Shown: one piece after another, positions 17,194 through 61,655 of the stretch
Layout: each line of letters starts with the position of its first letter
Numbering within the stretch: position 1 is the stretch's first letter
NCBI GenBank assembly: GCA_963791045.1
Contig: CAWBQK010000018.1
Span: 1 to 64,000 of the forward strand
Source: Candidatus Latescibacterota bacterium
GTDB lineage: Bacteria > Krumholzibacteriota > Krumholzibacteriia > WVZY01
Direction: 5' to 3'
Length of the DNA: 64,000 nucleotides
Made by a program: the position numbers and the translations under genes
The notes under the pieces: generated by a model
Seen by the model: the letters and a program-made list of their open reading frames with translations, nothing else
What the model was told of the DNA's origin: nothing
Database searches by the model: none

Positions 17194-18441
17194 ATGCGTG
17201 GTTTTGACACACTATTCATGTCCTTTGGGGCGATCCTCAGTAACAAGCTGAGGTCGATCCTGACGCTGGTGGGTATCGTGGCGGGCGTCGCCTCGATCAT
17301 CGCGGTGATGACGGCGATCTCAGTCGTTCAAACCACGCTGGAAAAAGAGATGAGTGTTCTCGGCTCGCAGGTTTTCCAGGTTCAGAAATGGCCGGTGGGG
17401 GGATTCAACTCGGATGAGGATCGGCGGCGAGCGATGAGGCGCCCGCCGATCACCGTGGAGAACGCCAACGCCATACGCGAGCAGGTAGAGAACGTGGATA
17501 TCGTCGGGGCCGAACTGTGGAACTTCGGAATTGTCATTAAATACCGCGGCGAAGAAACAAACGCAAATAACACCGTGTGCGGCGGCACTCCAGAATACGC
17601 TCCCAACAACACACATTACATCGGTATCGGGCGCAACATCTCGCAGATGGATGTGAAGAGCGGTCGGCGCGTCGCGGTCATCGGGTATGAACTCGGGCAA
17701 AAGTTCTTTCCGTTCACCGACCCGATGGGCAAGGAAATCCAGGTGGATGGGCGCAAGTACCAGGTTGTGGGCGTTTTCGACGAGAAGAAATCGGCCTTCG
17801 GTTCGAACTATGACAACTATGTGTTAATCCCGATCACATCGTTTCTGGGTACGTACGGAATGGTGGATCAGAGGGGCTTTTCACGGTCGGTCAATGTAAC
17901 CGTGCGCGCCAAAAGTCCCGAGGTCGTGCACGATGCGATCGAAGAGACGCGCCAGGTGCTCCGTCGCGAGCGCGGGGTGCGTCCGAACGAGGAAGACAAC
18001 TTCGAGTTTTTCAGCAGCGAGAGTCTGATCAAGGAATTCAATGAAATGACGATTGGGGTGAAAATCGCCGCGTTCGTTATCGGCATCATCGCGCTCGTTG
18101 TCGCCGGGATCGGGATCATGAACATCATGCTCGTCTCGGTAACCGAGCGAACAAAGGAAATCGGGATCCGCAAGGCTCTCGGTGCCAAACCGCGTTACAT
18201 CCTCACGCAGTTTCTCCTCGAGGCGGTTATTCTCTGTAACCTGGGTGGGATTATTGGCGTGCTTGTGGGGTTCGGTCTGGGGAACGTTGTCACCTTGTTC
18301 GCCTCTTTCGATGTCAACGTGCCCATGGAATGGGCCGTTATAGGTCTCGTGTTCTGCTCGATGGTAGGAATCGGTTTCGGGCTTTTGCCCGCGATCCGTG
18401 CCTCACGGCTCAACCCCATCGACGCGCTTCGCTGGGAATAA
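17194..18441 (+). CDS. MacB/FtsX-family ABC permease (second paralog)
   Basis: GIMNIMLVSVTERTKEIGIRKALGA, LNPIDALRWE; start taken at MRGFDTLF. Confidence 0.95.
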   Translation: MRGFDTLFMSFGAILSNKLRSILTLVGIVAGVASIIAVMTAISVVQTTLEKEMSVLGSQVFQVQKWPVGGFNSDEDRRRAMRRPPITVENANAIREQVENVDIVGAELWNFGIVIKYRGEETNANNTVCGGTPEYAPNNTHYIGIGRNISQMDVKSGRRVAVIGYELGQKFFPFTDPMGKEIQVDGRKYQVVGVFDEKKSAFGSNYDNYVLIPITSFLGTYGMVDQRGFSRSVNVTVRAKSPEVVHDAIEETRQVLRRERGVRPNEEDNFEFFSSESLIKEFNEMTIGVKIAAFVIGIIALVVAGIGIMNIMLVSVTERTKEIGIRKALGAKPRYILTQFLLEAVILCNLGGIIGVLVGFGLGNVVTLFASFDVNVPMEWAVIGLVFCSMVGIGFGLLPAIRASRLNPIDALRWE

Positions 18442-18541: not shown

Positions 18542-20533
18542 TTACTTCAGAATCACCATTTTTCGTGTTTCAACAAAACCGGGGCCGGTCAAACGGTAAA
18601 AGTAGGTTCCCGTCGCCACCGGGTGTCCATTTTCGTTGCGGCCATTCCACATCACCGATTTCTGTCCCGGTGATTCCATCCCGTCGACCAGCGTTCGCAC
18701 GAGGCGGCCGCCGACATCGAAAACGCGAAGCGTAACCGCGCCGCCGTCGGGCGGCACATCGAAGCGAATCGTCGTCGTTGGGTTGAATGGATTGGGAATG
18801 TTCTGATGAAGCGCGAATGTCTCTGCAACTTGATCCGCCGACGGGCGATCGTTTGGGCCCGTGGCGAGAGACTCATTATTTCCCACTATTACGACCGTGT
18901 CCTCTCCGTCGATGACGGTTCCATCGTAGAGTCTCGCCGTAAGACGAAGTGGTACGGCGTCTCCTTTGGAGACACGGCCCATTATCGCGGCGATGTCCGG
19001 GGTGGAGAATTTCATCACCAGATCGTCGAACCCGTCGCCCGACATATCGGCGCACGGGTGTCCGCTGTCGTGGCTCGCCGAAGCCAGGTCGGCGTATCGG
19101 ACCTTCATCGGCGACACGACACCCTCGACGCGAAGTGTCATGAGATTGATGTTTCGGACGTCGATACTCTCCGAACCCATTATGAGAGCTGAATATACTC
19201 CGTTGCTCTTTGGATTGAAGGGGTTCGGGCACGAACCGGGAAGCATGTCAAATGACGCCGGCATTGAAGCGGGTGCGTTCGCCAGTGTGGCGAGCGATGC
19301 GACGCCAACTTTGATGTTGTTGACGGTGAAGTCCGGGTGGACGTAATCGAGGAGATCCCTTGTTGAGTGGTAGTACGGGTTGAAATCAGCATCGTACCAG
19401 TCCCACGACTCCTCGTGGTTGACGCCGGAGTAACCGTTCATCCAGAACCAGAAGTGATCGCCCCACCACGCCCAGTCGTAAACATGGACTTCATAGGGCG
19501 CGTCGGTGTACAGATTGGCCGCGTTGACCACAGCGTCGGCGAGCCAACGCGACGCGCCGTTCGTCTCAATCTCGAGATCTTTTTCCACTCCGGGTTCCCA
19601 GTATCCCATCATGTCGTAGTTGAGAAGTCCGACGATGTCGAGGTTCATTTGTCTCGCCATCGTCGCGTAGAAGTAACTTCCGACCAAACCCTGCTCTTCG
19701 CCGCCGAAGCAAATGAAACGAACGGAATAATCAAATGAGTGCTGAGAAAGGATCTCCGCCGCAGTCAGCACCGCGGCCGTTCCGGAACCGTTGTCGTCCG
19801 CTCCTGGGGCGGATTTCATCGGGGTTTCGCTGACCGAATCAAAATGGCCGCAGATGACCACGTAGGAGTCGGGATAGCGCGTGCCGATTTGAGTGGCCTC
19901 GACATTCCACATCGTGGCGCCGTCGTATTCGAACGAATGCAAGGTCGTTTCTAAGCCATAACCCGCGAACTTGTCACTAATGGACCGCGCCACATCGCCG
20001 TGGTTCGGCGCGTAGCTGTAACGCGTGCCGAAGTCAACCAGCCACTGGATCTTGTCGCTGACACCCGTCCACTCGACCTGGTCGACCATAGCCTCGATGG
20101 CGGGGTCCGGTTCGGTGACTCGACTCCACGACTGGTTGCTCGCGGGTGGAGCTTCCGGCAGTTCATCTAGCGGAAGCACAAGGCAGCCGCGGCGAGACAG
20201 ACCTCGCACGGTCTCGGGATCACCCGATACCAGAAAGACATCCTTGTGTTTGCCGTGAATGACGACACCATCGGCTTCGGTCAATTGTTTGCTGGTACGG
20301 ACAAAAAACAGATCGCGTGGAAGCTTTTTCGTGGACAGATCGAACGCCTTCAGGGCGGGATGCTTCTGGATCTGTTCGGGCTCGAGCGCGTTGGTTTGCT
20401 CTCCGGCGAGCGCCGAACTCGCTGCAAAAGAAAACAAAAGCACGACGAAGAGGAAACATCCAATGTGACTGAAATCGCGAGTCAAATTCCGGACCGTGCG
20501 GGCAGAAGTTGGGTCTGGGCGACGCATGTTCAC
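18542..20533 (-). CDS. Secreted M28-family aminopeptidase with FlgD-Ig/T9SS-type C-terminal domain
   Basis: GHFDS, PGADDNGSG, GGEEQGL, NYDM, YHS; C-terminus QNIPNPFNP...RKMVILK. The start codon is uncertain. Confidence 0.92.
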   Translation of the reverse strand: MNMRRPDPTSARTVRNLTRDFSHIGCFLFVVLLFSFAASSALAGEQTNALEPEQIQKHPALKAFDLSTKKLPRDLFFVRTSKQLTEADGVVIHGKHKDVFLVSGDPETVRGLSRRGCLVLPLDELPEAPPASNQSWSRVTEPDPAIEAMVDQVEWTGVSDKIQWLVDFGTRYSYAPNHGDVARSISDKFAGYGLETTLHSFEYDGATMWNVEATQIGTRYPDSYVVICGHFDSVSETPMKSAPGADDNGSGTAAVLTAAEILSQHSFDYSVRFICFGGEEQGLVGSYFYATMARQMNLDIVGLLNYDMMGYWEPGVEKDLEIETNGASRWLADAVVNAANLYTDAPYEVHVYDWAWWGDHFWFWMNGYSGVNHEESWDWYDADFNPYYHSTRDLLDYVHPDFTVNNIKVGVASLATLANAPASMPASFDMLPGSCPNPFNPKSNGVYSALIMGSESIDVRNINLMTLRVEGVVSPMKVRYADLASASHDSGHPCADMSGDGFDDLVMKFSTPDIAAIMGRVSKGDAVPLRLTARLYDGTVIDGEDTVVIVGNNESLATGPNDRPSADQVAETFALHQNIPNPFNPTTTIRFDVPPDGGAVTLRVFDVGGRLVRTLVDGMESPGQKSVMWNGRNENGHPVATGTYFYRLTGPGFVETRKMVILK

Positions 20534-31419: not shown

Positions 31420-33837
31420 ATGGGAAGGCTCGCTTTACCAGCTGCGCTCTTCGCCGCCGTCCTTGTGGTTGTGGGGGCTTCTCCTGCTTCCGCCACCTGG
31501 GTGTACAACGGTGTACCCATGAGCTCGGCATCAAACTACCAAATGAACTCCGAAATCGTTTCAGACGGCGCCGATGGCGCAATCGTTGTCTGGGAGGATT
31601 GGTCGGGGGCTTCGGTGGACATCTACGCCCAGAAGGTCGATTCGTGGGGCGACATCCAATGGCCGGTAAATGGCATCGCCGTTTGCACGGCTCCGGGAAC
31701 ACAAATGCTTCCCAAGGTCTGCACCGACGGGGCCGGCGGTGCGATCATTGTTTGGCTCGATACGTCGGGTCTGGACTGGGACATCAAGGCGAGGAGAATT
31801 GACGCCAACGGCAATCCTCTCTGGGCGGCGACGGGCGCGACGGTGTGTGTTTCATTGGGCGTTCAACAAAACTATGATATTTGCTCCGATGGCGAGGGTG
31901 GTGTGGTCGTTATTTGGGAAGATTATCGAAACGGAAACGCGGACATTATGGCTCAGCGAATGCTCGCCGACGGTTCGACCGGTTGGGTTGCGACAGCCGT
32001 CGAGGTTTGTGTGGTGCCGGGAGAACAAACGTACCCGCAGATTATACAGGACGGCGAGGGTGGTTACATCGCGGCATGGAAAGATGTGCGAACGGCGGGG
32101 ATCGGTATTTACGGGCAGAGAATAACGTCGGACGGGACGATTTCCTGGGGATCGATGGGGGTTGCGTACTGCACGGTTCCCGCCACGGGACTTGGCTGGC
32201 CGCAGCTCATTTCCGACGGGTACCACGGTGCGATCGTCGTCTGGCACGATGAACGAACATCGGTCGATCAAAATATATACACACAGCGCGTGGACTATGA
32301 CGGAAACATGCTGTGGGGGCCCGACGGCACACTCGTATGTATCGCGACGGGGGATCAGCGTTACCCGGTCCTCACATCGGATGGCGACTACGGCGCCATT
32401 ATTACGTGGATGGATGCGAGCGGCGACTACGATGTATACGCTCAGCGCGTAAACGCGAACGGCGTTCCGAGATGGACGCACAACGGAAAGCCGGTGTGCA
32501 CCAAGGACGGGTATTCCAACCAGATTCAGATCACGACCGATGACGCGGGCGGCGCGATCATCGCCTGGCAGGACGCGCGGCTGAGTAGCCAGTATGATCT
32601 CTGGGCCCAGCGGATCGATCACGATGGTGATCCCGTGTGGCGTGTGGATGGCGTTATCGTGTGCGCGGACTATCCCGAGGACCAGACCCATCCGCGCATG
32701 ATCCCCGACACGAAAGGCGGAGCGCTCTTCTGCTGGGACGACGACCGGAACACTCCATATTACGATGTGTACGCGATGCGCGTCGAACGGGCGGGATACT
32801 ACGGGTATCCGTGTCCGAGAATCACGTCGGTTGAGGACGTCCCGGGCGACCAGGGTGGTTGGGTGGATGTCACGTGGTCAAGTTCGAGTCTCGATGAAGA
32901 CGGCGAGCCGGTGATTGACTATTCGGTATGGCGGAAACTGAAAAGCTACACGGTGTCGTCTCTGCTCGCCAGCGGGGCGAAAGGTGTGGACGAATGGGAG
33001 TTCGACAAAGCCGCCGCCGGACCGATCTACTTCTTTGAAGAAGTGGGAGGAACAACTTACGGATGGGAGTTCATGACGATGACTCCAGCATTCCAGCACA
33101 ATAGTTATACGTTGACGATTCCTACTCTGAACGACCTGTCACCCCAAAACATGGGTTATCACTATTTCAAAGTGATCGCACACACCGCCGAACCGACCAC
33201 ATTCTGGGAATCGCCGGAATTTCAGGGCAATTCGGTCGACAATATTTCGCCGCCCGAAACCTCCGGCCTTTCGGCCGAGCAGAGCATCAGCCCTGCCGGG
33301 TTGAAGCTCACGTGGAATTCGAGTACCGCCCCCGATCTTCTCTATTACAAGATCTACCGCGGAACACCGGCGGACTTGACAATGAATGTCGAAATCGTCC
33401 TGGCGACGACGCCGGACACCACGTACTTCGACGACTAGTGGCGTTGGGACGACATCTACTACTACAAGGTGGTTGGAGTCGATATCCACTATAACGAAGG
33501 CCCGCCCGTCTGGATAGGGAGGGAAGAGGTCATCGGCATCGACCCGCCCGATATTCCACTCACTACTTATATGGAGCAGAACTATCCCAACCCGTTCAAC
33601 CCTTCGACGACGATCAAGTTCGGGTTGAAATCTCCCACGGATGTCACGCTCCGTGTGTACGACGTCTCGGGACGGCTGGTGCGTGAGATTGTAAAAGAGA
33701 ATCGCCCCGCCGGTACGTACAAGGAGAGCTGGAACGGCAGGAACTACACGGGTAAAGAAGCGGCGAGCGGCGTGTATTTCTACAGGCTCAAAGCCGGCGA
33801 TTTCATTGAATCCAAAAAGATGATTTTAACCCGTTGA
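31420..33837 (+). CDS. Secreted repeat protein ('DGxGGAIIxWxDxR...DIYAQR' repeats) with FlgD-Ig/T9SS-type C-terminal domain; interrupted by in-frame TAG at 33436-33438
   Basis: Signal peptide and seven repeats. ORFs 31192-33438 and 33469-33837 are in the same frame and align with the downstream paralog across the stop. QNYPNPFNP...KKMILTR. Confidence 0.85.
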
Positions 33838-33864
33838 CGGTTGGACAAATGGAGGTGAATACAA

Positions 33865-36249
33865 ATGAAATTCAGAAGCATAAATAGAAGTAAAAACCAA
33901 TCGTCAGGGAGAGGATCAATCATGCGAAAGCAAATCATGAAGCTGGGCATCCTGGCCGCGCTCGTCGCGCTCAGCGCGATCGTCGTCGTGCCGGCAAGTC
34001 ACGCCGAGTGGGTGAAGGACGGAATCCCAATCGCCGTGTATGATGGCTACCAGGGTGACCAGGACGTTCTCGACGACGGCTTTGGAGGCGTGTTCATAGT
34101 CTGGCAAGACGCTCGCTTCGGCGATGACGATGTCTACGCACAGCGCGTCGACGCACTCGGCAACGAGCTGTGGACTCCCGGTGGTGTGAACGTCTCGGGA
34201 CCGCTTGCCGGCGAGCAGCGAGTGGCGCGGATGGTGGCGGATGTATCGGGCGGTTTCATCGTCGTATACGAAGACAACAACAGTGGAAACTATGACATCA
34301 AGGCACAGAATGTGGACGCCGGCGGCAATGTGCTGTGGACGCCCGGCGGTGTGACGCTCTGCTCCGAAACCGGCGATCAAAAAAATGTCGTCGTGGTATC
34401 CGACGGCGCCGGTGGGGTGATCGCTGTTTGGGAGGATTCCCGCTTCGGCGGCAAGGATGTTTACACACAGAGAGTCAACCATTCCGGGTTCGTTCAATGG
34501 GCGGCGAACGGTGTTGTCATTTGTGATGAGGCCAACGACCAGGGGGCTATCGCGGCGGTTACGAGCGGATCCGGAGGAGCATTGATTGCATGGCAGGATT
34601 TTCGCAGCGGCACGAACTTTGACGTTTACGCCCAGAGAGTCAACTCGAGCGGCGCGAGCCAATGGACAGCCGATGGCGTCGTCGTGTGCGACCAGGCGAA
34701 CAGCCAGTATTTGTGGACAATGGTGACAGACGAAGCGGATGGCGGAATCCTCGCGTGGACGGATTTGAGGAACGGAACCGACGACGATGTGTACGCACAG
34801 CGGATACTCGCGGACGGCAGTCTTGACTGGCCGGTCGCCGGTGTTGGCATTAACACGAGTTACGGCGATCAGTCGTACCCGGCCGCGGTGGCGGACGGCT
34901 CCGGAGGAGCCATAATCGCTTTCACCGCCTATGGCGGACTCAACGAGGACAACATCCGTGTGCAACGGCTGAACTCAAGCGGTTCGGCCTTGTGGTCTAC
35001 CGGTGGAAAAGAAATCTGCGGGATGGGTGGTGTCCAGGAGTTTGTGTCAATTATCCCCGCCGAGGACAGCGGCGCTTTTATCGCCTGGGAAGACGAGCGG
35101 TGGGGAAATGTCGATCTGTACATCCAGAAAGTGGACAGTCTGGGCGCCGCATCTTGGGTAAATGATGGTGTTCCAATAGTCCGCGCCGCGGACCTCCAGG
35201 TTAACATTCGTATGGCCGAAGCAAGCGACGGTGGGTGCATCGCCACGTGGATGGACAGAAGAAATGGATACTGGGATCAGTACTGCCAGCGCATAGACAA
35301 GTCGGGCGAGTGGGGTTACATGGCGCCGAAAAACCTTGTCATCAAAGACGTGCCCTACGATCAGGGTGGTTATGTGACCCTTACCTACGATGCCTCGATT
35401 CTCGACGCTTACCCGGGGACCGAGATCACGCAGTACGTAATTTATCGAAGTCTGACCGGTCCACCGTCGTACGCGTGGTCGGGTGTGGCGTCGTTTATCC
35501 CCACGTATCAGGAAACCTACACCTGGACTGAGGCGACGACGGCTGACTCGAGCGGGTCGGGGCCAGCGTACCATTACTACAAGGTTCGCGCGGGCACGGC
35601 GGATTGGGAATTTTATTGGGAGACGCTTCCCGACAGCGGCTACTCGGTGGACAACACGGTCCCGGCGGCGCCGTCGCCCGTTATCGGCGAACAAAAGATG
35701 GATCCGGGCGGGCTCGAGATCACATGGGCGGCCGGATCTGAGCCCGATCTGTCGCACTATGCCGTCTACAGGGGCACGAGCGAGGGTTTCGCCGCCACGC
35801 CCGATAACCGGATCGCGGTGCCGACCGAACCGCGTTATCTCGATAACGAATGGCAGTGGAGCAGCGGTTACTGTTACAAGATCGCAGCCGTGGATATCCA
35901 CGACAATCAAAGCGCATTCGCCGTTCTTCTTGCCGACGACGTGACCGGCGCCGACACGCCGGCCGTTCGTTACACCAATGGGCTCGAACAAAACGCGCCG
36001 AACCCGTTCAACCCGACAACTCGGATTACCTTCGAGATTGCCGACAGGGCGGATGTGTCGCTGAAGATATACGACGCACAGGGAAGGCTCGTCCGCGACG
36101 TCGTCAACCGGGCAATGGGACCGGGCCGCTATGAAGAAATGTGGGACGGCCGGGTTCACGATGGAAGTCCGGCTGCGAGCGGCGTGTATTTTTATAAATT
36201 GACCGCTGGATCGTTTATCGAAACCAAAAAGATGATCCTTCTCAAATAG
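33865..36249 (+). CDS. Paralogous secreted repeat protein with FlgD-Ig/T9SS-type C-terminal domain
   Basis: Same seven repeats, DVPYDQGG module, QNAPNPFNP...KKMILLK. Alternative start at 33922. Confidence 0.9.
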   Translation: MKFRSINRSKNQSSGRGSIMRKQIMKLGILAALVALSAIVVVPASHAEWVKDGIPIAVYDGYQGDQDVLDDGFGGVFIVWQDARFGDDDVYAQRVDALGNELWTPGGVNVSGPLAGEQRVARMVADVSGGFIVVYEDNNSGNYDIKAQNVDAGGNVLWTPGGVTLCSETGDQKNVVVVSDGAGGVIAVWEDSRFGGKDVYTQRVNHSGFVQWAANGVVICDEANDQGAIAAVTSGSGGALIAWQDFRSGTNFDVYAQRVNSSGASQWTADGVVVCDQANSQYLWTMVTDEADGGILAWTDLRNGTDDDVYAQRILADGSLDWPVAGVGINTSYGDQSYPAAVADGSGGAIIAFTAYGGLNEDNIRVQRLNSSGSALWSTGGKEICGMGGVQEFVSIIPAEDSGAFIAWEDERWGNVDLYIQKVDSLGAASWVNDGVPIVRAADLQVNIRMAEASDGGCIATWMDRRNGYWDQYCQRIDKSGEWGYMAPKNLVIKDVPYDQGGYVTLTYDASILDAYPGTEITQYVIYRSLTGPPSYAWSGVASFIPTYQETYTWTEATTADSSGSGPAYHYYKVRAGTADWEFYWETLPDSGYSVDNTVPAAPSPVIGEQKMDPGGLEITWAAGSEPDLSHYAVYRGTSEGFAATPDNRIAVPTEPRYLDNEWQWSSGYCYKIAAVDIHDNQSAFAVLLADDVTGADTPAVRYTNGLEQNAPNPFNPTTRITFEIADRADVSLKIYDAQGRLVRDVVNRAMGPGRYEEMWDGRVHDGSPAASGVYFYKLTAGSFIETKKMILLK

Positions 36250-36275
36250 TTTGAGGTTCTGCAGTGGGCTCGCGC

Positions 36276-36315
36276 AAAAACGCCCGGCGGCCGAGAAGTG
36301 GCTGCCGGGCGTTTT
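36276..36315 (+). terminator. Rho-independent terminator
   Basis: AAAAACGCCCGGCGGCC...GGCTGCCGGGCGTTTT. Confidence 0.8.
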
Positions 36316-36395
36316 CCTGCTATTTTGATTCTGATGATATCTTGATATGGTATACTACCGGCGCGACCCCACGCACCCCAATCGGAGGAATCGGT

Positions 36396-37454
36396 ATGTT
36401 GTTTCGATCACTGCTATTGGCAGGTTTCGTACTTCTTTTGTTCGCTCCCGTGCGCGCACAGGTCGATGGCCCCGTCGGAGCCGAGCTTGGCGATCTCGAG
36501 GAACTCTTCATAAAACCGTTTGGTGTCCGCAATCAGGGTATGGGTTGGGGTGGGGTGGCCGATGGAACGGTTGCTGCAAACTTTTACTACAATCCCGCTA
36601 ACCTGTTGTCTCACCGTGGGTTCGAGCTTGCTTTCGAAACCCAGAACTGGATGGATGAGCTCGATTTTTACAACGGCGGCGCGGCGGCGAGATTCAAGAT
36701 CGGTAAAAGCGAAACACGGAAGTACCACATCTCAACGGCGATATGGAACGGGCGGCAAAAGAACGTCTACCATAGCATGGGCGAAACGATTGAAACGACA
36801 AACTGGTATCTGAATTGCGCCCTGGCGTTCGGAATGCAAACCGAACGTTTCGAAATTGGTGTCGGCGCCGCCGTCAAGCCGGCGTTTGTGGAGTTCGAGT
36901 CCTTCGATCAGGACGCCACAGCGTGGGCGTTCGATGTCGGTTTCAAACTTGGTGGTCTTCTGATGGACAAGAGAGGGCACAAGCTTGCGGGATATGGCGG
37001 GGCCAGCATCCTCAACTTTGGTAGCGACGCCGAGTCGCAAGACGCGATGTCCGAGCTTCCGACCGACATACGCGCGGGCGTGTCGTTCCGTTACAGCTCG
37101 CCGCCGACGAGCACACGCGCGCAGACAATGATCTCCGCTCTCACCATCACAATGAATGCCGAAATCGTCGACCGGTCGCTTCGGCGCGAGATCGACATGT
37201 CGAGCGGTGCGAAGAGCCCGCCGATGGGATCGATGATTGGCGCCGAGTTGTGTTTTTACAATGTTTTCAATTTTCGTTACGGTTACATGGACGATGGCAT
37301 CGGCAGCGGAATCAATTCCGAGACTTACGGCGCCGGGTTGCAGTTCTCCAGCGAAAAGTTTGAGGCGGCCCTGGATATTTCTCACCTTCCGGAACTCTAT
37401 TCGGGTGGTTCCGGCGTGACATCGACGGGGTTCAGTTTGGCCTGGTTCTTCTAG
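36396..37454 (+). CDS. PorV/PorQ-like (FadL-type) outer-membrane barrel
   Basis: Signal peptide, N-terminal 'I.P.GVR..GMG...VA......YYNPA.L' signature, AFDVG, FRYGY, terminal FF. Confidence 0.75.
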   Translation: MLFRSLLLAGFVLLLFAPVRAQVDGPVGAELGDLEELFIKPFGVRNQGMGWGGVADGTVAANFYYNPANLLSHRGFELAFETQNWMDELDFYNGGAAARFKIGKSETRKYHISTAIWNGRQKNVYHSMGETIETTNWYLNCALAFGMQTERFEIGVGAAVKPAFVEFESFDQDATAWAFDVGFKLGGLLMDKRGHKLAGYGGASILNFGSDAESQDAMSELPTDIRAGVSFRYSSPPTSTRAQTMISALTITMNAEIVDRSLRREIDMSSGAKSPPMGSMIGAELCFYNVFNFRYGYMDDGIGSGINSETYGAGLQFSSEKFEAALDISHLPELYSGGSGVTSTGFSLAWFF

Positions 37455-44499: not shown

Positions 44500-47010
44500 T
44501 TACTTTAGCATCACAACTTTTTTGGTCGACTGATACGACCCGGCCTTGAGATGTACGAAGTAGACACCGGTCGCAACCTGCCGTCCGTCGGAATCATGCC
44601 CGTCCCACAACGCGTTGTGGAGACCCGCCGGCATGACCTGGTCCTTGAGGGTCCGCACGAGTTCACCGTTCGCGTTGTAGATCCTGAGCACAACCCGCTC
44701 CTGTGATACCAGGTTGAACGGGATTGTGGTTGATGGGTTGAACGGGTTCGGATACGCCGACCGAAGCGCGGTCATCGTCGGTATATCTTCATCCCTCGGT
44801 TTCGGCTGGTCTTCCGTCCGTCGGATGACGATCGTCGGAACGAGCGGGACTGGCTCTCCAAGCGCGAAGATATCCGGCGCGAGGAAATCCAACTCTCCGA
44901 CGCCGGTGTAATGGAAACCGATGGGACCGTAGTCGACATCGAGGTCGATTTGTTCGTCGTCGGTCGGTGTCGACGCGGCGAGCAGCATATTCACTTCGGC
45001 CGCGGAATAATAGAGAGCGAGGTCCATCAGATCCATCGGCGTTGTTGTCGATCTCAAGCGTTTCCTTCGGGAAGAATGACGTCGTAGAGATTTCCAATAT
45101 AGGCCTGTTCAAGATCGATGGACGTAGCGTCGAAAGGAGCGGTTACAACGACCTGTTTCCATCCTTGTCGATTTGTATTCGCCCGGCCGCGAAGGAAGAA
45201 CCACGGCAAACCTGTCAAGCGCGGGGTCAAACCCGATGCCTTCGCCGTCGAATCCTGTCGATGCGAATATCAAGCCGGACTGGTCGTGCGGGACGCGAAC
45301 ATGTTTGATGACGTTGGTGGGGTTGCCGACGCAATCACGGGCCCTGAAAGCCAGCCGGTACACTCTGCCGTCACCGCCGCCGGCGCGTTCCGAACGAAGC
45401 TGGATATGGCGGCGGTTGATGATCTGGATATCGTTGACGGTGTTGCCGTCGCCCTTGCCGTTGTCCGGCTCATCGCTGGTGACGCTCACCAATCGCCAGT
45501 TGGGGGTCTCGCAGCAAACATCTGTCAGTTGGACGGTCACCCTGATATCCGCCATCTTGTGATTTGGCGGCCACAATACATGGCGGTTGAGTCTCACAAT
45601 GAATTCGGGGGGCGTCGTGTCCTCGACGGTAACGTCCGCGCTGCAGGTAGCCGTAAGCCCCGCGCAGTCCGTTGCCGTGAAAGTGACCGTCGTCGTTCCA
45701 AGCGGGAAGCAATCCGGAGCGTCGTTCTCCACGGTGACATCGCAGCAGATATCGTCCGCCGCGACGGCGCCAAAGAAGCCGGTGAGCTGATCGTCCGCCG
45801 GCGTCGTACCGCAGAAGCCGGTGCATTCAACCGTAATATTCATTGCGCAGGCTGTGAAAAACGGAGGTGTTGTGTCTTGAACGGTTATGTCGACATAAGC
45901 GACATCCTCCGCGTCACCGTCGGACACCGTCAACGTCACCGTTGTGGTTCCGAGAGGGAAGCTCCCCGTCGGCGTCGATGATGCGGGGTTGTCGAATGTA
46001 ATACCGGGGGCCGTCCACATGAACGACAACGGATCACCATCGGGATCGTACGATCCCGTGCCATCGAGAACGACGGGTGTGGTTGCCCCGGCGCATTCGA
46101 CGGTTTGATTGGGCCCGGCATCGGAAACCGGCGGATTGTTCAGGCTAATGATGCCAAAAAAGGTTGCGCTGTGGATGCCCCATGCGTCGCCGTTTGTCAG
46201 CGGGTGGAAATCTTCCCAACGGATGGAGGCGACGGGCGCCCACGTATCGAGGCAGCCGTACTGGTTGTTGCCTCCGTCGTCACGCCAGCCGACGACGGTG
46301 ACGAAATGGTCCGTGCCGCCGTTGCCGTCGCTGTCGACGAGGATGACAAAGGGACGGCCCGCGTTGATCTCATTTTTGACATCGTCCCAGGTAAAGTTGC
46401 CCCATTCTCGATAGATTGAAGTTGAGGAGTAGTGGGCCGTGTAAGCGGTGTTGGCCCACGCGACGTATTCGTCCATGCCGTTATCGATCATATCGGAGTA
46501 GGACCATCCATAGTAGAGTCCGTCAATCGAGAATGACGTGTGCATGAAGTCGCCGATACAATTGCTCGCATGCTCGTCACCAGCCGGGGCTTCGGACAAG
46601 TCCGGCTGCACGGGGTTGGGTGAACCGTCGATTGGGAGCGAGTAATCTGAATAATGGGTGTTGGCGCCGTCTCCAGTGGCTATCGCCTGATCGACATCAT
46701 TGGTCTGTGTCAATGCGTCACCCGGGATGAGGAGCGGAAATCCATTTGCATCCCAATAGCCGATCACCATACCAGCGGCCGTTGGTCCGCACCCGTGCCG
46801 CCACAGGTACCCCGGCACGCCGCCGATGATTGTTTGTGACGTTGTGGATACCGATCCCAGATATGGTTCGTATCCTTTCACTGGCGCGGGACCGGTGGGT
46901 GTGTATTCGCTATGAGCTCTCTGCGCCCATGACGATTGCGCCATCCCAAGCGTCATAACAGAACACACCAAAAAAGCGACCACAATGGGTCGCCACATTC
47001 GAAGCCTCAT
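44500..47010 (-). CDS. Secreted papain-like (C39/C10-like) cysteine protease with PKD, HYR, 'LWPPNHK' and FlgD-Ig/T9SS-type domains; frameshifted at 45060-45180
   Basis: SD GGAGG; GCGPTAAGMVIGYWD (Cys) and INAGRP...HFVTVVGW (His); DAGPNQTV...DPDGD (PKD); FPLGTTTVT twice (HYR); SAYPNPFNP...KKVVMLK in ORF 44500-45057. Confidence 0.8.
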
Positions 47011-50914: not shown

Positions 50915-51997
50915 TCAGGGCATTTTGTAGATCAACGCGTTGATATTCATTCCAGCGCCGACCGATGCAAATGCGATTGTTTCTCCGGATTCCAAATGAT
51001 GATTGTCGAGTTTTTTCTTAAAAATAAGGTCAACCAAAGTCGGTAGCGTCGCCACCGAACTGTTGCCAAGCCACGATATCGTCATCGGCATCACCCATTC
51101 GGGTGCTGGATTATCTCCGAAGAGCTTGAACAATCTCGTGAGAATGGCTTCGTCCATCTTGGCGTTCGCCTGGTGGATGAAAACTTTGGATACGTCGGTG
51201 ATTGACAAACCGGCCTTGACGACGCATTCCCTGACAACTCTTGGCACTGTCCGAAGTGCGTACTGATAGAGCTTGTGGCCCTGCATTTTCAAGAACAAAT
51301 CGCCGCCCTTGAAGTCGGGGTTGTACGACGGGCCCATGCGAAGCATGTGCGCGTGCTCAAATGTATCCGAGCGGCTGGCGTGTGACAGGATACCTACCGG
51401 AGCTTCGTTCTTGACCCCTTCGACCACACAGGCGCCCGCCCCGTCGGCGTAGATCATACTGTCGCGGTCGTGTGGATCACTGACCCTCGAAAGAACTTCG
51501 GCGCCAACAATAAGCGCCCGTTTGGCGTCGCCCGATCGGATAAAATAATCCGTTTGGATTAACCCCTGGAGCCAGCCGGGGCACCCGAACGGAAGATCGT
51601 AGCATACGGTGTTTGGATTTCGAATCCTGAGCCTGTTTTTGATTCTGGCGGCGATCGACGGCACCAGGTCCGAACGGCGATTACCGGCCTGAACGTCGCC
51701 GAAATTGTGCGCGACGACAATATAGTCGAGGCTTTCCTTGTCGGTATTTGACGATTCGAGAGCATCCCTGGATGCCTCGTACGCGATGTCGGAGGTGGTG
51801 AGATCGTCACTCACGTACCGTCTTTCATCGATTCCCGTAATCGCCTGGAACTTGTCAATAATTTCCTGTGTGGACCGGTCGAACCGCTTGCCGTTCTCGT
51901 CGAAAAATTCGTGGTCGAGAAAATAAGAGTTGGGGATTCTCTCTGTGGGTATGCAGCATCCGGTTCCAACGATGATCGTGGCTGTGTGGCTACTCAT
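50915..51997 (-). CDS. fabH: 3-oxoacyl-ACP synthase III family protein
   Basis: TGIDERR, catalytic Cys in FGCPGW, ADGAGA, HQAN, GNSSVAT. Confidence 0.88.
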   Translation of the reverse strand: MSSHTATIIVGTGCCIPTERIPNSYFLDHEFFDENGKRFDRSTQEIIDKFQAITGIDERRYVSDDLTTSDIAYEASRDALESSNTDKESLDYIVVAHNFGDVQAGNRRSDLVPSIAARIKNRLRIRNPNTVCYDLPFGCPGWLQGLIQTDYFIRSGDAKRALIVGAEVLSRVSDPHDRDSMIYADGAGACVVEGVKNEAPVGILSHASRSDTFEHAHMLRMGPSYNPDFKGGDLFLKMQGHKLYQYALRTVPRVVRECVVKAGLSITDVSKVFIHQANAKMDEAILTRLFKLFGDNPAPEWVMPMTISWLGNSSVATLPTLVDLIFKKKLDNHHLESGETIAFASVGAGMNINALIYKMP

Positions 51998-52298
51998 AAC
52001 GAAGATTGATTTGCCTTTCGTGTCAGATTTTGAACGGCGGTCATTGTTCCGCACAAGTTATCATAGGCAGTTGGGCTCGTCTCGCGACGTCATTTGGTCT
52101 GGGCAGGGCCATATTACACATCCAGCCGCTGCTTGTCGAACATTTCTTGACCCTCCACGGGCTTCTCTCAGCCGTGGAGGAACCCTGGACTTTTTCGACG
52201 CTCTCAGTAGGTGCCCCTGTTCGCGTCACGGGGATCGAACAGCGTTGCATGTCGCGGGTATTCGTAACTAATTGGAATAAATACAGTTCCCGTGATCC

Positions 52299-56723: not shown

Positions 56724-58577
56724 TTATCCAATGTCGGAAAGCCGCTCATCGAATTCATGGGCGGCTTTCTCATAGGCTTTCGTCGCTTTTTCGAGATTCT
56801 CGAAAGCCGCGTCGATATCCTTCGTGAGTTCCTCGTGTCGCCGTGAGTGAGTGCCGATCGCCTCGCCGTCGCCTGCGACGGAGGCCGATTCGAGTTTCGC
56901 GAGGACGTCCGCTGCTTCCGCTTCGAGTGTCTCGATGCGTTGTTCCAGTTCTTTGACTGTTTTCTCGATCGGGCCGACGGCCCGAGATCGCTCCTGGACG
57001 ATCTGGGCACGCGCCTGACGGAGGGACTTCTTGCCAATCGTGGGCGCGGACCGTTTGTCGTCGGCCGACGAGTCCTTCTGACGCAGCGTTTCATCGAGTT
57101 CCCACCCGATCTTGTCCAGAAAATCCTGGTAGCTTCCCGCGAAATTAATTATCCGTCCGCGGTCGAACACGATAAACCGATCGGCGAGCGACCGGAGAAA
57201 CATCTCGTTATGCGTAACGATAGCGACGGCGCCTTCGAACGCATCGATGGCGGCGAGAAGGGAATCACACGAATCGATGTCGAGATGATTCGTGGGCTCG
57301 TCGAGAAGCAACAGGTTGCACGGCGATGCGAGCAATTTGCCGAGCATCACTCTGCTTTTCTCACCGCCGGAGAGGACCGATATCAGTTTAAGCGCATGAT
57401 CATCTTCGAACATCATTGCCCCGGCGATATCACGAGCCGCTTGTCCGACGCAGCCGGCGTTGGCGAGTGTGATTTCGTCGACAACGGAATTGGATGGATG
57501 CAGCGTATGGACATTTGTTTGCGCGAAGAATCCCGTTCGCAAACGCGGGTGACGTGATATCGTACCGCGTTTCGGCGTCAGATCTCCGGCAAGGAGCCGC
57601 AGCAGTGTTGACTTGCCTTTCCCGTTCTGCCCCATAATACAGATGCGGTCGCCATGACCGATTTCCAGTTCGAAGCCTTGTATGATGGGCTTGTCCTCAT
57701 CGTACGAGAACGCGAGCTTCTCGGTTTTCATGAGCACCTTGGCGGGAAAAGGCGCGCTGTTGAAAGAAAACGCGAGCGTCTTGATCTTGTCGAGTTTGTC
57801 CATCGGTTTGTGCTTGGCCAGCATTTTGACTCGCGACTGCACGAGAGATGCCACTTTCTTCTGTGCCCGGAACTGAACGATGAAACGCTCGACTTCTTTG
57901 CGTTTCTTCTCGTCGTTTGTTCTGGTTTTTTCGTAGACCTCTTCTTCCCTGAGGATCTGGTCGTAGAGTTTTCGAGTGCCCCCTTCCATTTTGCGCGCTC
58001 TTTGCCGGTGGATCGCAACGGTGTGTGTCACCACGCTGTCCATAAACGAGCGATCGTGTGTGATAAGGAGAAGCTCCGAACGCCAATCACGAAGAAAGCG
58101 AGCCAACCACCGAATCGAAACAATATCGAGATAGTTCGTTGGCTCGTCAAGGAGAAGAAGGTCCGGCTCGGAAATCAACGCCTTGGCGAGATTGAGTCGC
58201 ACCTGGAACCCACCCGAGAACACTTCCGGAGGCCTCTCCATGTCCTCTGCAGTGAAACCGAGGCCGAAGAGGATTTTCTCCGCTTTCCACGCGTGGTCCT
58301 TGTACTCCCTTGGGAGGGCCTGGCGGGCTTCACCGATGACGGTGTCTTGCATAAAATGAATGGACTGGTCGAGGTGGCCGATCCGGTATTTCTTGGGAAT
58401 GATAATCGTTCCCGCGTCGGGTTCCAACTCGCTGAGAATCATGCGAAAGAGGGTGCTCTTACCGTGGCCGTTGCGTCCGACAAGGCCGACGCGTTCGCGT
58501 TTGCCCACGTCGAACGTCAACTCTTTGAAGAGAAGTTGATCGCCGAAGGATTTTGAAAGACCGGAAATCTTTATCAT
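56724..58577 (-). CDS. ABC-F family ATPase
   Basis: Two ABC domains (GRNGHGKST; GQNGKGKST; LLLDEPTN twice), no TM segments, C-terminal coiled coil. Confidence 0.95.
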   Translation of the reverse strand: MIKISGLSKSFGDQLLFKELTFDVGKRERVGLVGRNGHGKSTLFRMILSELEPDAGTIIIPKKYRIGHLDQSIHFMQDTVIGEARQALPREYKDHAWKAEKILFGLGFTAEDMERPPEVFSGGFQVRLNLAKALISEPDLLLLDEPTNYLDIVSIRWLARFLRDWRSELLLITHDRSFMDSVVTHTVAIHRQRARKMEGGTRKLYDQILREEEVYEKTRTNDEKKRKEVERFIVQFRAQKKVASLVQSRVKMLAKHKPMDKLDKIKTLAFSFNSAPFPAKVLMKTEKLAFSYDEDKPIIQGFELEIGHGDRICIMGQNGKGKSTLLRLLAGDLTPKRGTISRHPRLRTGFFAQTNVHTLHPSNSVVDEITLANAGCVGQAARDIAGAMMFEDDHALKLISVLSGGEKSRVMLGKLLASPCNLLLLDEPTNHLDIDSCDSLLAAIDAFEGAVAIVTHNEMFLRSLADRFIVFDRGRIINFAGSYQDFLDKIGWELDETLRQKDSSADDKRSAPTIGKKSLRQARAQIVQERSRAVGPIEKTVKELEQRIETLEAEAADVLAKLESASVAGDGEAIGTHSRRHEELTKDIDAAFENLEKATKAYEKAAHEFDERLSDIG

Positions 58578-58764
58578 GTCGAATCTTGTCGCGGGGTTCG
58601 CTTTTTATTAACGTTCATTTCGCATTAAAAGTTCGGGTGTCCGAATTTAGTAATTATAACACGAGGCATGGTCCGGCGCCAAATTCGTATACATCGCGAT
58701 CAAAGTCTGTATAATTAATCGCCTCGATGTGATGTCACGTTGATTTGCATGAACAGGAGGGCTC

Positions 58765-60120
58765 ATGGTTAACAGACTTCTGATATTCCTCGTGTTGGGG
58801 GCCGTCGCGCTCGCCGCATGGGGTGGTGTCGCCGGGGCGGCCGACACTCCAGAAAAGGGCGCCGGGGCGATGGCCGCCGATGAAGCCTACAACAAGGCGA
58901 TGACGGCGAGGCGTGCCGTCGAACCTATCGAAGAGAGACTTGCCATTACCAAGAAGTTTCTCGATGATTATCCCGAGAGTAGCCATACGGCGAACGCGAT
59001 AAGTGCGGTCGTCTATTACCAGGGAAACGCGCTGGATGATATGGACGGCGCTATCGCATATGCCGAAGCCATCCGTGCGAAGATTACGGATCCCGACGTT
59101 GCCGACGCATTGGATAAAGAGCTGATGGTCGTTTATGGCGAGGCGGGCAAGATGGACAAGATGCTCGCGATTGCCAACACGATGGAGGCCGGCGATAAGC
59201 TCAAATTCAATGACTACTGGAGCATTATCGAAAGCGGTATGCAGGCCGAGGAATGGAAGCTGGTCAGAGACTACTGCGTTAAGGCAAAGGGCATGGCCAA
59301 CGCCGAGACGTTCAAATCCGACTGGCCCGACAACGACGTGAGCGGCGAAGAGCTCAAGGTAGCGGGAGACAACCGCACCGGCATGCTGATGATCGCCGAC
59401 GGTTGGGCGCGCGCGAACCAGGGGGAGACCGACGAGGCTCTCGCCGATTTCGCCGCGGCCGACAAACTTGTGCGGCGTTCGATGTTCGATCGCCCCGAGT
59501 ACAATCTCAACACGTACTGGGCCAAGACATCGCTGATGAAGGGCGACTACCAGGCGGCGATCGACCGTTGTGCGATCGATGCCCTCGTTATGAAAAACAA
59601 GGACGCCCTTGCCGGTTTGAAGACGGCATACGCCGGACTCAACGGTAGTGAAGACGGGTTCGATGCGTACACCAAAGATCTGCACAAGAAGATTGCCCCA
59701 CCGGTGGAAGACTTCGAGCTGGCAGATTACGACGGAAAATCGCACAAGTACGGAGATCTAAAAGGGCAGGTGACACTACTCGCTTTCTGGTTCCCCACCT
59801 GAGGCGGCTGCCGCGTGGAGTTACCACGCCTCGAGCCCCTCTGGCAGAAATACGGAGACAAAGGTTTCTCGGTCATCGCCGTTGAGATCGCACGCGATCG
59901 CGAACGGGCGACCAAGTTCATCGATGAGAACAAACTTACGTACCACCTTCTCGAAGACAACGAGAACGAAGCCGTCGTGCGCGAGCAGTTTGGTGTTGGA
60001 GTATTCCCGACGTCGTTCATGATCGACAAAGAAGGTAAGATCATGTACTGCCACATCGGTTTTGACAAAGGCGACGAGGAAAAACTCGAGAAGGAAATCC
60101 TGGAACTCGGCGGATTTTAG
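58765..60120 (+). CDS. Exported TlpA/redoxin-domain selenoprotein (UxxC) with helical TPR-like N-terminal region; 451 aa with Sec at codon 346
   Basis: LLAFWFPT-TGA-GGC-GGC-TGC-CGC-GTG-GAG = T-U-G-G-C-R-V-E-L-P, in frame with ORF 59815-60120 (cis-Pro motif VFPT). A hairpin lies just 3' of the UGA. Confidence 0.9.
59803..59837 (+). promoter_or_regulatory. Putative bacterial SECIS element
   Basis: GCGTGG-AGTTA-CCACGC (59813-59829) starts 10 nt after the TGA (59800-59802); lower pairing GGCT/AGCC. Confidence 0.7.
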
Positions 60121-60333
60121 GCTTTCCTGGTTGCAGAGAGATTTGAAAATGACGAAGCGGCCGGCGCGAAATCGCCGGTCGTTTCGCGTTTTGAGCGAGT
60201 TTTCGACGGCCCCAAACAATACTTGAATTAATCGGGGTTAAGCGATAAAGTGGCTCGGATATCCACGGCATTACGGCACACACCGGCCCGCCCGGGTCGG
60301 GGGAGGTTTTTTTCAGAAAGGGAGGTATGCCTG

Positions 60334-61584
60334 GTGGAGAAACGTACTGCATCTTTTATCACTACACTTCGTTGTCAGAACCGAACCGGAAACATCATTG
60401 TGATGATCGCGTTTGTTTGCGCGATTGCCGCGGCGTTTGTGACGGTTCCCGGCGAAGCAAGGGCGGACGAGGCGCTGAAGTTCAAGGTCTATGGGTTTTT
60501 GCGGTTTGACATTATGTCGAGCGATTCGCGAATGAATAACAACCTGGTGCCCATGTGGGTGTTGAACGAGTACACGCCCGATGCGATTAAGGACGATGCG
60601 AGCCTTGCCTATCATCCGCGTCTGACGCGGGTCGGTATGAAGTTCCAGGGTCATCCGCTTAGCGACAAATGGTCGCTCGACGGTGGGGTGGAGATTGACT
60701 TCCAGGTTTTTGACGCGGGCAGTGAGTCGCGGCAGGTGCCGCGAATGCGGCTTGGATTCATGCGGCTCAATTACAATGATCTTCATATTCTCGCCGGCCA
60801 GCATTGGGACGTCATATCGACGCTGTATCCAAACGTCAACCTCAACGGTGTCAACTGGAACGCCGGTAACACCGGTGACCGCCGGCCGCAACTTCGAGTG
60901 ACATTCTCGCCCGAGGTTGGGAACGGAAACATCAGGCTTACAGGAGCGTTGACGGAAGCGGGCGCCGTAAACATGTCGGATGTCGACAAGAACGGCGTGC
61001 CCGATGGGATCGACAGTTCGGTTCCCATGCTTCAGGGTTGGTTTGGAACCGAACAGAATATGGGAGAAAATGGGAGTATCAAAGCGGGTGTGTGGGGTCA
61101 CTACTGGGAAGAGAAAGACCTGCGCATTCCTCCCACTGTTCCTGAAATCGGAGACACGACGCTTGCAGATCTTACGTCGTGGAGTGTTGGAATCGATTTG
61201 AGAGTCCAGGCTGTTGAGTGGCTGATGTTCCAAGGCGAAGCCTGGACCGGCGAAACTCTCGGCGATATCCGAGGTGGCATCGGACAGACGATCAACGCTG
61301 ATGGCGAGGCGATTGGCGCCACCGGTGGATGGGTCGAGGCCGACATATCTCTGGGCGAGAAATTCGTACTCATCGGCGGATACACAATGGACGATGTCAA
61401 AGATGACGATATATCGGACGGGATGCGGGCGAAGAACCAGGCTCCTTACGGTGCTCTCCGCTGGAAGCCTTTCAAGAAACTGATGTTGTCGTGTGAGTAT
61501 ATCCGCTTCGAGACGACATACAAGAGTTACGAAGAGACATCGGTCAACAACCATATTGACCTCAATATGATGTACTTCTTTTAG
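60334..61584 (+). CDS. Outer-membrane porin (DcaP-like)
   Basis: KVYGFLRFD, TRVG, VEIDF, RMRLGF, GQHWD, RRPQLR, terminal YFF. Start inferred from SD GGGAGG. Confidence 0.75.
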   Translation: MEKRTASFITTLRCQNRTGNIIVMIAFVCAIAAAFVTVPGEARADEALKFKVYGFLRFDIMSSDSRMNNNLVPMWVLNEYTPDAIKDDASLAYHPRLTRVGMKFQGHPLSDKWSLDGGVEIDFQVFDAGSESRQVPRMRLGFMRLNYNDLHILAGQHWDVISTLYPNVNLNGVNWNAGNTGDRRPQLRVTFSPEVGNGNIRLTGALTEAGAVNMSDVDKNGVPDGIDSSVPMLQGWFGTEQNMGENGSIKAGVWGHYWEEKDLRIPPTVPEIGDTTLADLTSWSVGIDLRVQAVEWLMFQGEAWTGETLGDIRGGIGQTINADGEAIGATGGWVEADISLGEKFVLIGGYTMDDVKDDDISDGMRAKNQAPYGALRWKPFKKLMLSCEYIRFETTYKSYEETSVNNHIDLNMMYFF

Positions 61585-61618
61585 TCTATCGCGTAACTTG
61601 TTGTCATAATGCAAGAAA

Positions 61619-61655
61619 TGACGGCCGCCCCCGCAAGGGGCGGCCGTCGTCATTT
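61619..61655. terminator. Terminator hairpin between convergent genes
   Basis: GACGGCCGCCCC-CGCAA-GGGGCGGCCGTC. Confidence 0.7.

Follow-up and report, generated by a model that had tools for sequence, protein, structure and literature searches.

Is the TGA codon at positions 59800-59802 of the DNA presented here a stop between two genes, or is it translated as selenocysteine (Sec, U) in the middle of a single one? The DNA, referred to below as the window, is a stretch of 64,000 nucleotides (nt) of contig CAWBQK010000018.1 (assembly GCA_963791045.1) of a Candidatus Latescibacterota bacterium. On its forward (+) strand an open reading frame (ORF) of 345 amino acids (aa) at 58765-59802 begins with ATG and has this TGA as its last codon, and a 101-aa ORF with a GTG start follows downstream in the same frame at 59815-60120. 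Read through with U for the TGA, the frame stays open over 451 codons (...VTLLAFWFPT-U-GG-C-RVELPRLEPL...) up to a TAG stop. Sequence comparison makes it very probable that 58765..60120 (+) is one complete gene, encoding an exported selenoprotein of 451 aa in which the in-frame UGA at codon 346 specifies Sec. An earlier note on the window had proposed the same protein. The two ORFs do lie in one frame, as it stated, and the TGA does fall at the first Cys of the motif FWFPT-U-GG-C-RVELP when the protein is aligned with CxxC proteins; the proposal as a whole is supported by the conservation of the TGA, by Cys-containing homologues, by covariation in a hairpin 3' of the codon and by a structure model.

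A Thioredoxin Fold Across the UGA Codon

The Pfam family Redoxin (PF08534) matches residues 314-443 of the read-through product with 72.3 bits, against a cut-off of 26.6, and AhpC-TSA (PF00578) matches residues 313-428 with 69.7 bits, both across the TGA. Since a single Redoxin/AhpC-TSA domain (aa 313-443) covers the position of the TGA, the annotated pair of ORFs is a single thioredoxin fold cut in two; on its own, the downstream one would start past both redox residues, and a chance juxtaposition of ORFs would not give two halves of one domain. AlphaFold2, run on an alignment of 37 read-through proteins, returned a model with a predicted local distance difference test score (pLDDT) of 92.3 and a predicted template modelling score (pTM) of 0.85, in which residues 1-27 are disordered, residues 33-310 form 16 helices and residues 318-449 adopt a thioredoxin fold. 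Foldseek searches of the PDB matched the C-terminal domain (aa 313-451; 59701..60117, +) to Chlorobium DsbE (3gl3; target template modelling score, TM, of 0.89 and root-mean-square deviation of 1.8 Å), and further matches included ResA (1st9, 2f9s), StoA and TlpA in complex with CoxB (4txv), the target TM being 0.82-0.90 for 3gl3, 4nmu, 1st9 and 2f9s.

A phmmer search of the PDB also found 3gl3 (6.8e-19) and put U346 opposite the first CxxC cysteine of 3gl3 (WCGPCRQSFP), 2l5o (FWFPSCPGC) and 4nmu. The motif U346-G-G-C349-R-V-E352-L-P354 fits a CxxC-type pair at the N-terminus of helix 1, followed by [RK]-x-E-x-P, and C349, E352, P354 and P415 are invariant in all 37 proteins. The role of Glu352 is presumably that of Glu80 in ResA, and a PDB entry named 'ResA E80Q' (2h1b) is among the Foldseek matches. 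P415 (60007..60009, +; conserved in 37/37 and 16/16) lies in a conserved F-P-T-S loop at the place of the cis-proline of thioredoxin folds. By sequence and by predicted fold, the C-terminal domain is thus a thiol-disulfide oxidoreductase of the TlpA/ResA/DsbE type, and it should have the enzymology usual for TlpA-like redoxins.

An alternative that retains Sec is that the protein is a peroxide-detoxifying periplasmic peroxidase similar to peroxiredoxin (Prx) or glutathione peroxidase (GPx) instead of a protein-disulfide reductase. Sec is typical of peroxidases, the score of AhpC-TSA nearly equals that of Redoxin (69.7 vs 72.3 bits), and there are weak matches to thiol peroxidase and GSHPx models. 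A 'Prx-like thiol:disulfide oxidoreductase' with PF00578 and UxxC is also listed as a selenoprotein family in a 2026 review (PMC13188914). The best structure and sequence matches are, however, to DsbE, ResA and TlpA, and the highest-placed Prx-type chain (Bcp4, 3hjp) comes no earlier than rank 39. Moreover, W-x-x-x-U-x-x-C-[RK]-x-E-x-P is a TlpA/ResA-type motif, and the spacing P-x-x-x-[TS]-x-x-C, which we take to be that of Prx, does not occur in F-W-F-P-T-U-G-G-C. We consider a peroxidase unlikely, and a disulfide reductase of the TlpA/ResA/DsbE type remains our preferred assignment.

Conservation of the UGA Codon

A word-indexed search of 5.8 billion proteins yielded 99 matches, 92 of them to the N-terminal part (P0002-P0093) and 7 to the redoxin domain only. 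All but one of the 92 end exactly at ...W[FY]PT (91/92), in line with the statement in the earlier note that standard pipelines would split this gene; the exception, P0012 (367 aa), carries another tail. These proteins go under the names 'hypothetical protein' or 'TPR repeat protein' (TPR, tetratricopeptide repeat), and the organism, where it is given, is a member of the Latescibacterota.

For comparison at the DNA level, one genome per species was sampled with the peptide pattern T[LV]L[AT][FL]WFPT, which lies upstream of the TGA and leaves the codon itself unconstrained. The pattern matched 57 stretches, 44 of which were confirmed as relatives (L001-L044), and in most of these loci tblastn matches cross the stop position and continue to about residue 448. 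The 44 loci derive from metagenome-assembled genomes (MAGs) of Latescibacterota/Krumholzibacteriia, of Acidobacteriota (Thermoanaerobaculia, Sulfomarinibacteraceae, Holophagae), of one member of the Fibrobacteraceae and of one 'Chondromyces'. In the window and in all 44 loci the codon after WFPT is TGA (45/45), never TAA, TAG, TGC or TGT, and it is always followed by two residues and a Cys (45/45); in 44 of the 45 copies, 103-115 more in-frame codons are open past it. The true terminal stops of these genes, by contrast, are mixed (TAG 18, TGA 14, TAA 12; n = 44). If codon 346 really ended translation, it should have varied as the terminal stops do; the invariant TGA is most likely the codon of U346, the N-terminal redox residue of U-G-G-C (59800..59802, +). 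The predicted resolving Cys of the UxxC motif, C349 (TGC in the window, 59809..59811, +), is encoded by TGC in 28 and by TGT in 9 of 37 copies; being invariant and yet written with both synonymous codons, it points to selection on protein within what is annotated as an intergenic spacer.

Some of the sampled loci call for separate comment. The proteins of L012, from the 'Chondromyces sp.' MAG, and L013, from a Thermoanaerobaculia MAG, are near-identical (tree branches 0.03 and 0.039), and the myxobacterial label of L012, a 3.3-kb contig, probably reflects a binning error rather than gene transfer. A few copies seem to be damaged: in L004 a TAG stands 19 codons past the Sec codon (L004:3197-3259), and in L035, L036, L042, L043 and L044 the N-terminal part is open for only 60-236 codons before it. 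These are either decaying genes or MAG assembly errors.

A Conserved Hairpin Downstream of the UGA Codon

A hairpin with a 6-bp stem (GCGUGG/CCACGC) and a 5-nt loop (AGUUA) occupies 59813..59829 (+), starts 10 nt past the TGA and has a G at the second loop position. It had already been noticed in the window alone, and its core folds with -8.8 kcal/mol; the comparison of homologues bears it out. In a gap-free alignment of the 45 copies over 54 nt that include the TGA, all 270 of 270 cells of the stem (59813-59818 with 59824-59829) are paired; one is a G-U pair and none is broken. Compensatory changes affect three of the six stem pairs, in six cells belonging to L009, L025, L033 and L041: G-C is replaced on both sides by U-A in 2 sequences, C-G by U-A in 1 and U-A by C-G in 3. 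The loop reads AGUUA in the window copy and in L030, and AGUUG in the other 43.

The hairpin is also the part of the gene under the strongest synonymous constraint. Normalised codon entropy was calculated for the 123 columns in which a degenerate amino acid is conserved, and the 112 of them that lie outside 347-358 served as comparison. It is 0.077 for R350-V-E-L-P-R355 vs 0.668 for the 112 other columns (Mann-Whitney p = 2.9e-5), and columns 350-355 are the six-column stretch of lowest entropy in the gene. Nearly without exception the hairpin is written with the codons CGC, GTG, GAG, TTG, CCA and CGC, whereas the rest of the gene uses its Leu and Pro codons freely. Scored with a covariance model of the hairpin, 59813..59829 reaches 69.9 bits, and nothing else in the window appears at E<0.8.

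The published model of the bacterial selenocysteine insertion sequence (SECIS; bacterial form, bSECIS) specifies a loop of 3-9 nt, an upper stem of 4-16 bp, a distance of 16-37 nt from UGA to loop, a G in the first two loop positions that is usually followed by G or U, and a minimum free energy (MFE) of -7.5 kcal/mol or lower (PMC13188914, section 5). With a loop of 5 nt containing A-G-U, a stem of 6 bp, a UGA-to-loop distance of 16 nt (59803-59818) and an MFE of -8.8 kcal/mol, the hairpin agrees with all four published criteria. We also considered an extended lower stem that would include the UGA (59798..59844, +; MFE fold of -26.5 kcal/mol). This fold is specific to the window and was rejected: its 15 pairs are formed in 85.5% of cells vs 84.4% in shuffles, and several of them are broken in 12-26 of the 45 sequences. 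Our claim is accordingly limited to the 6-bp core, and this nearly invariant 17-nt SECIS core offers a simple probe for the SelB recognition element in these lineages.

Cysteine-Containing Homologues

When 1.84 billion cluster representatives were searched exhaustively with phmmer, 132 proteins matched at E<=1e-30. The majority of the top 150 matches end at query residue 345, and 15 homologues among these 150 align both with the N-terminal domain and past the TGA position; 12 are full-length (P0103, P0105, P0119, P0120, P0126, P0127, P0133, P0137, P0143, P0184, P0233, P0242) and 3 are fragments (P0111, P0136, P0146). The earlier note had suggested inspecting this column in homologues: it holds TGA in the 45 DNA copies and Cys in all 15 read-through proteins, which in the protein alignment also have Cys at C349. 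The motifs of the Cys forms (CGPC, CIGC, CGEC, CAFC and others), preceded by WNPA, WSPS and the like, are unlike the WFPT-U-G-G-C of the Sec forms, and these records are therefore probably true Cys proteins and not Sec records with a changed letter. The peptide C-R-V-E-L-P, which in the Sec forms is encoded by the hairpin, is intact in the Cys forms P0103, P0105, P0120, P0143, P0242 and P0111, where it may either be left over from an earlier SECIS or serve as a functional motif.

In a tree of the 37 Sec and 12 full-length Cys forms the two kinds are interleaved. The tree was calculated with IQ-TREE under LG+G4, with the Shimodaira-Hasegawa-like approximate likelihood ratio test (SH-aLRT) as the only support measure; it has long branches, includes no outgroup and is drawn with midpoint rooting. 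Parsimony requires 7 changes between Sec and Cys, at least 3 of which are forced by well-supported branches. The window copy groups with L001, L002, L003 and L005 (support 98), and the Cys form P0103 is the sister of this group (support 99). Since all Sec clades share the same SECIS core, a single origin of Sec, followed by changes from Sec to Cys or by transfer, appears to be the simpler reading of these sequences. The direction from Sec to Cys is described as rare in bacteria in the 2026 review (PMC13188914), and the interleaved forms offer a test case for the direction of Sec/Cys exchange.

Alternative Readings of the UGA Codon

Apart from the peroxidase discussed above, three alternatives concern the codon itself. 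The UGA might be read by a route other than Sec, either through hairpin-stimulated insertion of Trp, Cys or Arg by a near-cognate tRNA or through reassignment of TGA. Stimulatory 3' hairpins do occur in recoding events other than that of Sec, and Sec machinery was not found in the window or in the 44 loci. However, the codon stands at the catalytic Cys of a CxxC motif that has Cys in homologues, a textbook Sec/Cys signature; the hairpin, down to the G-U in its loop, agrees with the bSECIS model; and Trp or Arg in the active site would kill a redoxin. TGA also terminates other complete genes of the window (22 of the 53 complete ORFs listed for it), among them a FabH-like gene (50915-52054) in which it falls at profile position 321/322, and the codon is therefore not reassigned. 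Taken together, these observations make a non-Sec route very unlikely.

That the TGA is a true stop between a 345-aa TPR-like protein and an independent 101-aa protein starting at the GTG at 59815 is what gene callers annotate, and one database protein (P0240, 102 aa) indeed starts at VELPRLE. A GAGG lies about 10 nt 5' of the GTG, and TGA is, with its 22 of 53 complete ORFs, a common stop here. Yet the Redoxin domain requires both halves: the first product would stop inside the fold without redox residues and the second would start past both of them. The spacer codons GGC-GGC-TGC-CGC are conserved as protein, with Cys349 varying between TGC and TGT; the TGA is found in 45/45 copies while true stops are mixed; and the Cys forms run uninterrupted through this point. 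Two separate genes are, in our view, highly improbable. A pseudogene or a sequencing or assembly error at 59800-59802 is hardly conceivable, for even though six copies look damaged (L004, L035, L036, L042, L043, L044) and another gene of the window appears frameshifted, the same TGA recurs in 45/45 independent assemblies from several phyla with both of its flanks under purifying selection.

Some results nevertheless weigh against the assignment of the gene as a selenoprotein gene. The fold of the window sequence at 59795-59865 has a z-score of -1.70, and 17 of 200 shuffles are at least as stable; so modest a fold of a single sequence gives no proof of structure from the window alone, and it is the comparative data that supply it. 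Rfam has no family at gathering scores in the whole window and none at E<=10 over 59700-59950. The peptide RVELP is kept in several Cys forms as well, and part of the nucleotide conservation of the hairpin therefore reflects the protein; these Cys forms, in turn, were compared as protein sequences. An NCBIfam scan of the 50 window ORFs, limited to these 64 kb, found no selA, selB or selD; ARAGORN found no tRNA in the 64-kb window, and a search of the 44 loci and their flanking DNA gave no tRNA-Sec. DsbD/CcdA, cytochrome c maturation (ccm) and sel genes were likewise absent from 81 representative flank ORFs searched with Pfam. Finally, the function proposed below for the TPR-like domain is purely one that we infer.

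The Helical Domain and Predicted Export of the Protein

The earlier note had described the N-terminal part as an uncharacterised helical domain of some 300 aa, which accords with the 16 helices of the AlphaFold2 model (aa 33-310; 58861..59694, +) and with the Pfam results: residues 1-312 match no family, TPR profiles included, at E<=0.1. A separate model of the N-terminal part has a pLDDT of 91.4. Its best Foldseek matches are all generic TPR proteins, among them the designed CTPR 9qhc (E 1.6e-4), LapB (4zlh) and LGN, with weak values throughout (E 1.6e-4 to 6e-3, TM 0.2-0.5). NCBIfam gives only a weak match to CpoB (0.012), and a search of the ESM Atlas with this domain gave only unnamed or TPR-bearing clusters from Acidobacteriota with scores of at most 0.88, which we regard as a lead. 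Judged from the model, 'TPR-like', without a specific relative, is a fair description of this domain.

At the N-terminus a basic residue, about 15 hydrophobic residues and an A-G-A before the putative cleavage site make up a typical signal sequence, as read from the letters, and the predicted signal peptide comprises aa 1-25 (MVNRLLIFLVLGAVALAAWGGVAGA; 58765..58839, +); the pLDDT is below 50 for aa 1-27. A pattern search found a lipobox-like L-x-[GAS]-C in 28 of the 37 aligned full-length homologues, and most of the homologues from Acidobacteriota are accordingly probably lipoproteins by this pattern. The window copy has W19 (58819-58821; alignment columns 30-34) at the column of the lipobox Cys, and several close relatives read ...AWGG or ...GWGG. 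The replacement of the Cys by W19 suggests that in the Latescibacterota branch a lipoprotein became a soluble protein of the periplasm, and the protein of the window is probably soluble and periplasmic. Of the earlier note's remarks on location, export is thus probable from the signal sequence and the lipobox pattern, whereas the idea that it would be unusual for a Sec redoxin is weak, as thiol:disulfide interchange, DsbG-like and TlpA-type selenoproteins are tabulated in the 2026 review (PMC13188914).

Proposed Mechanism

If these assignments are correct, the ribosome would reach the UGA at codon 346, the hairpin at 59813-59829 would act as a bacterial SECIS that recruits SelB-GTP-Sec-tRNA(Sec), and Sec would be inserted in place of termination, as in established bacterial Sec decoding. 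The signal peptide would then take the protein over the inner membrane. In the redox domain, where the usual family features Glu352 and Pro415 are retained, the selenolate of U346 would attack and C349 would resolve, giving a selenenylsulfide. The putative TPR-like solenoid would most likely bind a protein substrate or partner and present it to the redox centre, and recycling would presumably depend on a membrane reductant of the DsbD/CcdA type, although none is encoded nearby.

One could go further and regard these proteins as a periplasmic 'chaperedoxin' family that is possibly also ancestrally Sec, a reading that we hold, taken as a whole, to be doubtful. The TPR-like solenoid could hold unfolded or oxidatively damaged envelope proteins, the selenolate centre could reduce sulfenic acids or wrong disulfides of these clients, and the interleaved Cys forms could be repeated Sec-to-Cys reversions, with Sec clades spanning three phyla.

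Gene Neighbourhood and Other Features of the Window

The gene is preceded by a Shine-Dalgarno-like AGGAGGG (58755..58761, +), read from the sequence 3 nt 5' of the ATG, and by a promoter-like TATACA-16-TATAAT (58688..58715, +) about 50 nt 5' of the start, which is a pattern match only (10/12 matches in a consensus scan). A pattern scan between the two halves of the gene revealed no promoter-like or terminator-like site. Its neighbours are a divergent ABC-F ATPase gene (56724-58577) and, downstream, a 444-aa ORF at 60250-61584 (+). The latter matches no Pfam or NCBIfam family; its hydrophobic N-terminal stretch and its end in ...MMYFF suggest an outer-membrane barrel, and a 446-aa ORF on the opposite strand (60313-61653, -) overlaps it almost fully.

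Over the 44 loci the neighbourhood is not conserved: the neighbours fall into 109 clusters, mostly singletons, the largest of which is common to 11 of the 44. The gene therefore seems to stand alone, with a pathway that is not readable from its context. The largest neighbour group, from 11 closely related loci, comprises an IF-2B-like gene, a phytase-like gene and a gene with an RF-1 domain. This RF-1-domain gene (PF00472, peptidyl-tRNA hydrolase/ArfB type) lies directly downstream in these 11 loci, which are Sulfomarinibacteraceae-like (e.g., L007:4366-4830, L026:3277-3876); curious as it is beside a UGA-recoding gene, this is probably plain synteny among close relatives.

Two other places in the window were considered as selenoprotein genes and rejected. 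At 6728-7477, within a homocysteine S-methyltransferase gene (6728-7579; NF007020, 298.8 bits, profile positions 34-267 of 306), the interruption is a frameshift near 7470 and not Sec: the expected C-terminal part, ...VGGCCRVGPEDI..., lies in another frame past the TGA at 7475-7477, which marks either a pseudogene or an assembly error. The ORF at 15894-17243 is a normal permease gene that ends in TGA. A second SECIS was also discarded, the next-best match of the covariance model having 11.8 bits (E 0.88). Elsewhere in the window, type IX secretion sorting domains (TIGR04183) and a PorV/PorQ-like gene (18542-20533, 33469-36249, 36264-37454, 44500-45057) fit an organism of the Fibrobacteres-Chlorobi-Bacteroidetes (FCB) group such as the Latescibacterota, the phylum of the nearest homologues.

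Comparison With Known Systems

The family adds unannotated selenoproteins to phyla that selenoproteome work has barely covered. It is represented by 92 or more protein clusters (90% identity) and by 44 genomes at species level. Public records present it as a 'hypothetical' or 'TPR repeat' protein and, in at least one record (P0240), as a stray small ORF past the redox motif. As a result of this split annotation, domain architecture, redoxin counts and selenium dependence are misreported for these organisms. For the Acidobacteriota, the deep-Sep paper lists 3 known selenoprotein genes in Occallatibacter riparius (its Table 2), and a further report describes Sec-type hydrogenases from MAGs of this phylum. 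In our literature search, Latescibacteria and selenoproteins or selenocysteine were mentioned only separately, although the supplements of surveys, which lay outside the search, could list the family; no paper combining selenoprotein, tetratricopeptide and TlpA was found, and the motif strings occurred in no relevant paper.

Among known selenoproteins, the closest class is that of the UxxC redoxins. The table of the 2026 review has entries for a 'Prx-like thiol:disulfide oxidoreductase' (PF00578, UxxC), a 'Thiol:disulfide interchange protein' (PF13098), a 'DsbG-like protein' and TlpA-type selenoproteins (PMC13188914). Since such families are already tabulated there, a UxxC TlpA-like selenoprotein is of a known kind, and an exported location would seem unexceptional. 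The protein described here shares with this class Sec as the first residue of UxxC, the thioredoxin fold, Cys homologues and a bSECIS directly 3' of the codon. We presume the DsbG-like, TlpA-type and thiol:disulfide interchange selenoproteins to be periplasmic, a word that the review itself does not use. The term 'TPR' does not appear in that review either, and it describes no TPR-like domain for these families; an overlap with the broad PF00578 class is possible (PMC13188914).

The protein stays below the curated cut-off of every NCBIfam model that it matches. Among these models, NF041054 (ResA-like WAxxUGC, 'UGC-containing TlpA'), NF053656 (TUGYCR redoxin) and NF040769 (SelL-related) likewise describe TlpA or redoxin folds with an active-site Sec, and the local T-U-G-x-C-R of the present protein resembles TUGYCR. 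The spacing in the WAxxUGC family is UxC, however, and UxxC here, and with scores below the cut-offs of all three (46.7 vs 300, 13.6 vs 100 and 22.9 vs 120, respectively) the protein is not a member of any of them. With TlpA, ResA and CcmG (DsbE) it has in common the fold, the position of the active site, a Glu three residues past the second redox residue, the Pro loop and, by prediction, an extracytoplasmic signal. In contrast to these proteins, its first Cys is replaced by Sec, the membrane anchor ahead of the fold gives way to a TPR-like domain of about 280 aa, and no ccm, res or cox genes adjoin it among the window ORFs or the flank ORFs of the 44 loci. Its NCBIfam scores for ResA (81.8 vs 170), TlpA (55.8 vs 230) and DsbE (46.3 vs 123.15) are so far below the cut-offs that it is no orthologue of any of the three.

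In architecture, the protein recalls the 'chaperedoxins' CnoX/YbbN, in which thioredoxin and TPR domains are fused. CnoX, a cytoplasmic protein, has its domains in reverse order and is not known to contain Sec, and CnoX/YbbN does not appear among the Foldseek and PDB phmmer matches listed; what the two have in common is the combination of a thioredoxin fold with a TPR-type helical domain, which suggests a client-binding module coupled to a redox module. Set against these systems, the gene at 58765-60120 represents a family that is new and throughout wrongly annotated; it belongs to a known class, the UxxC selenoproteins with a thioredoxin fold, in which it is distinguished by its fused TPR-like domain and its nearly invariant SECIS.

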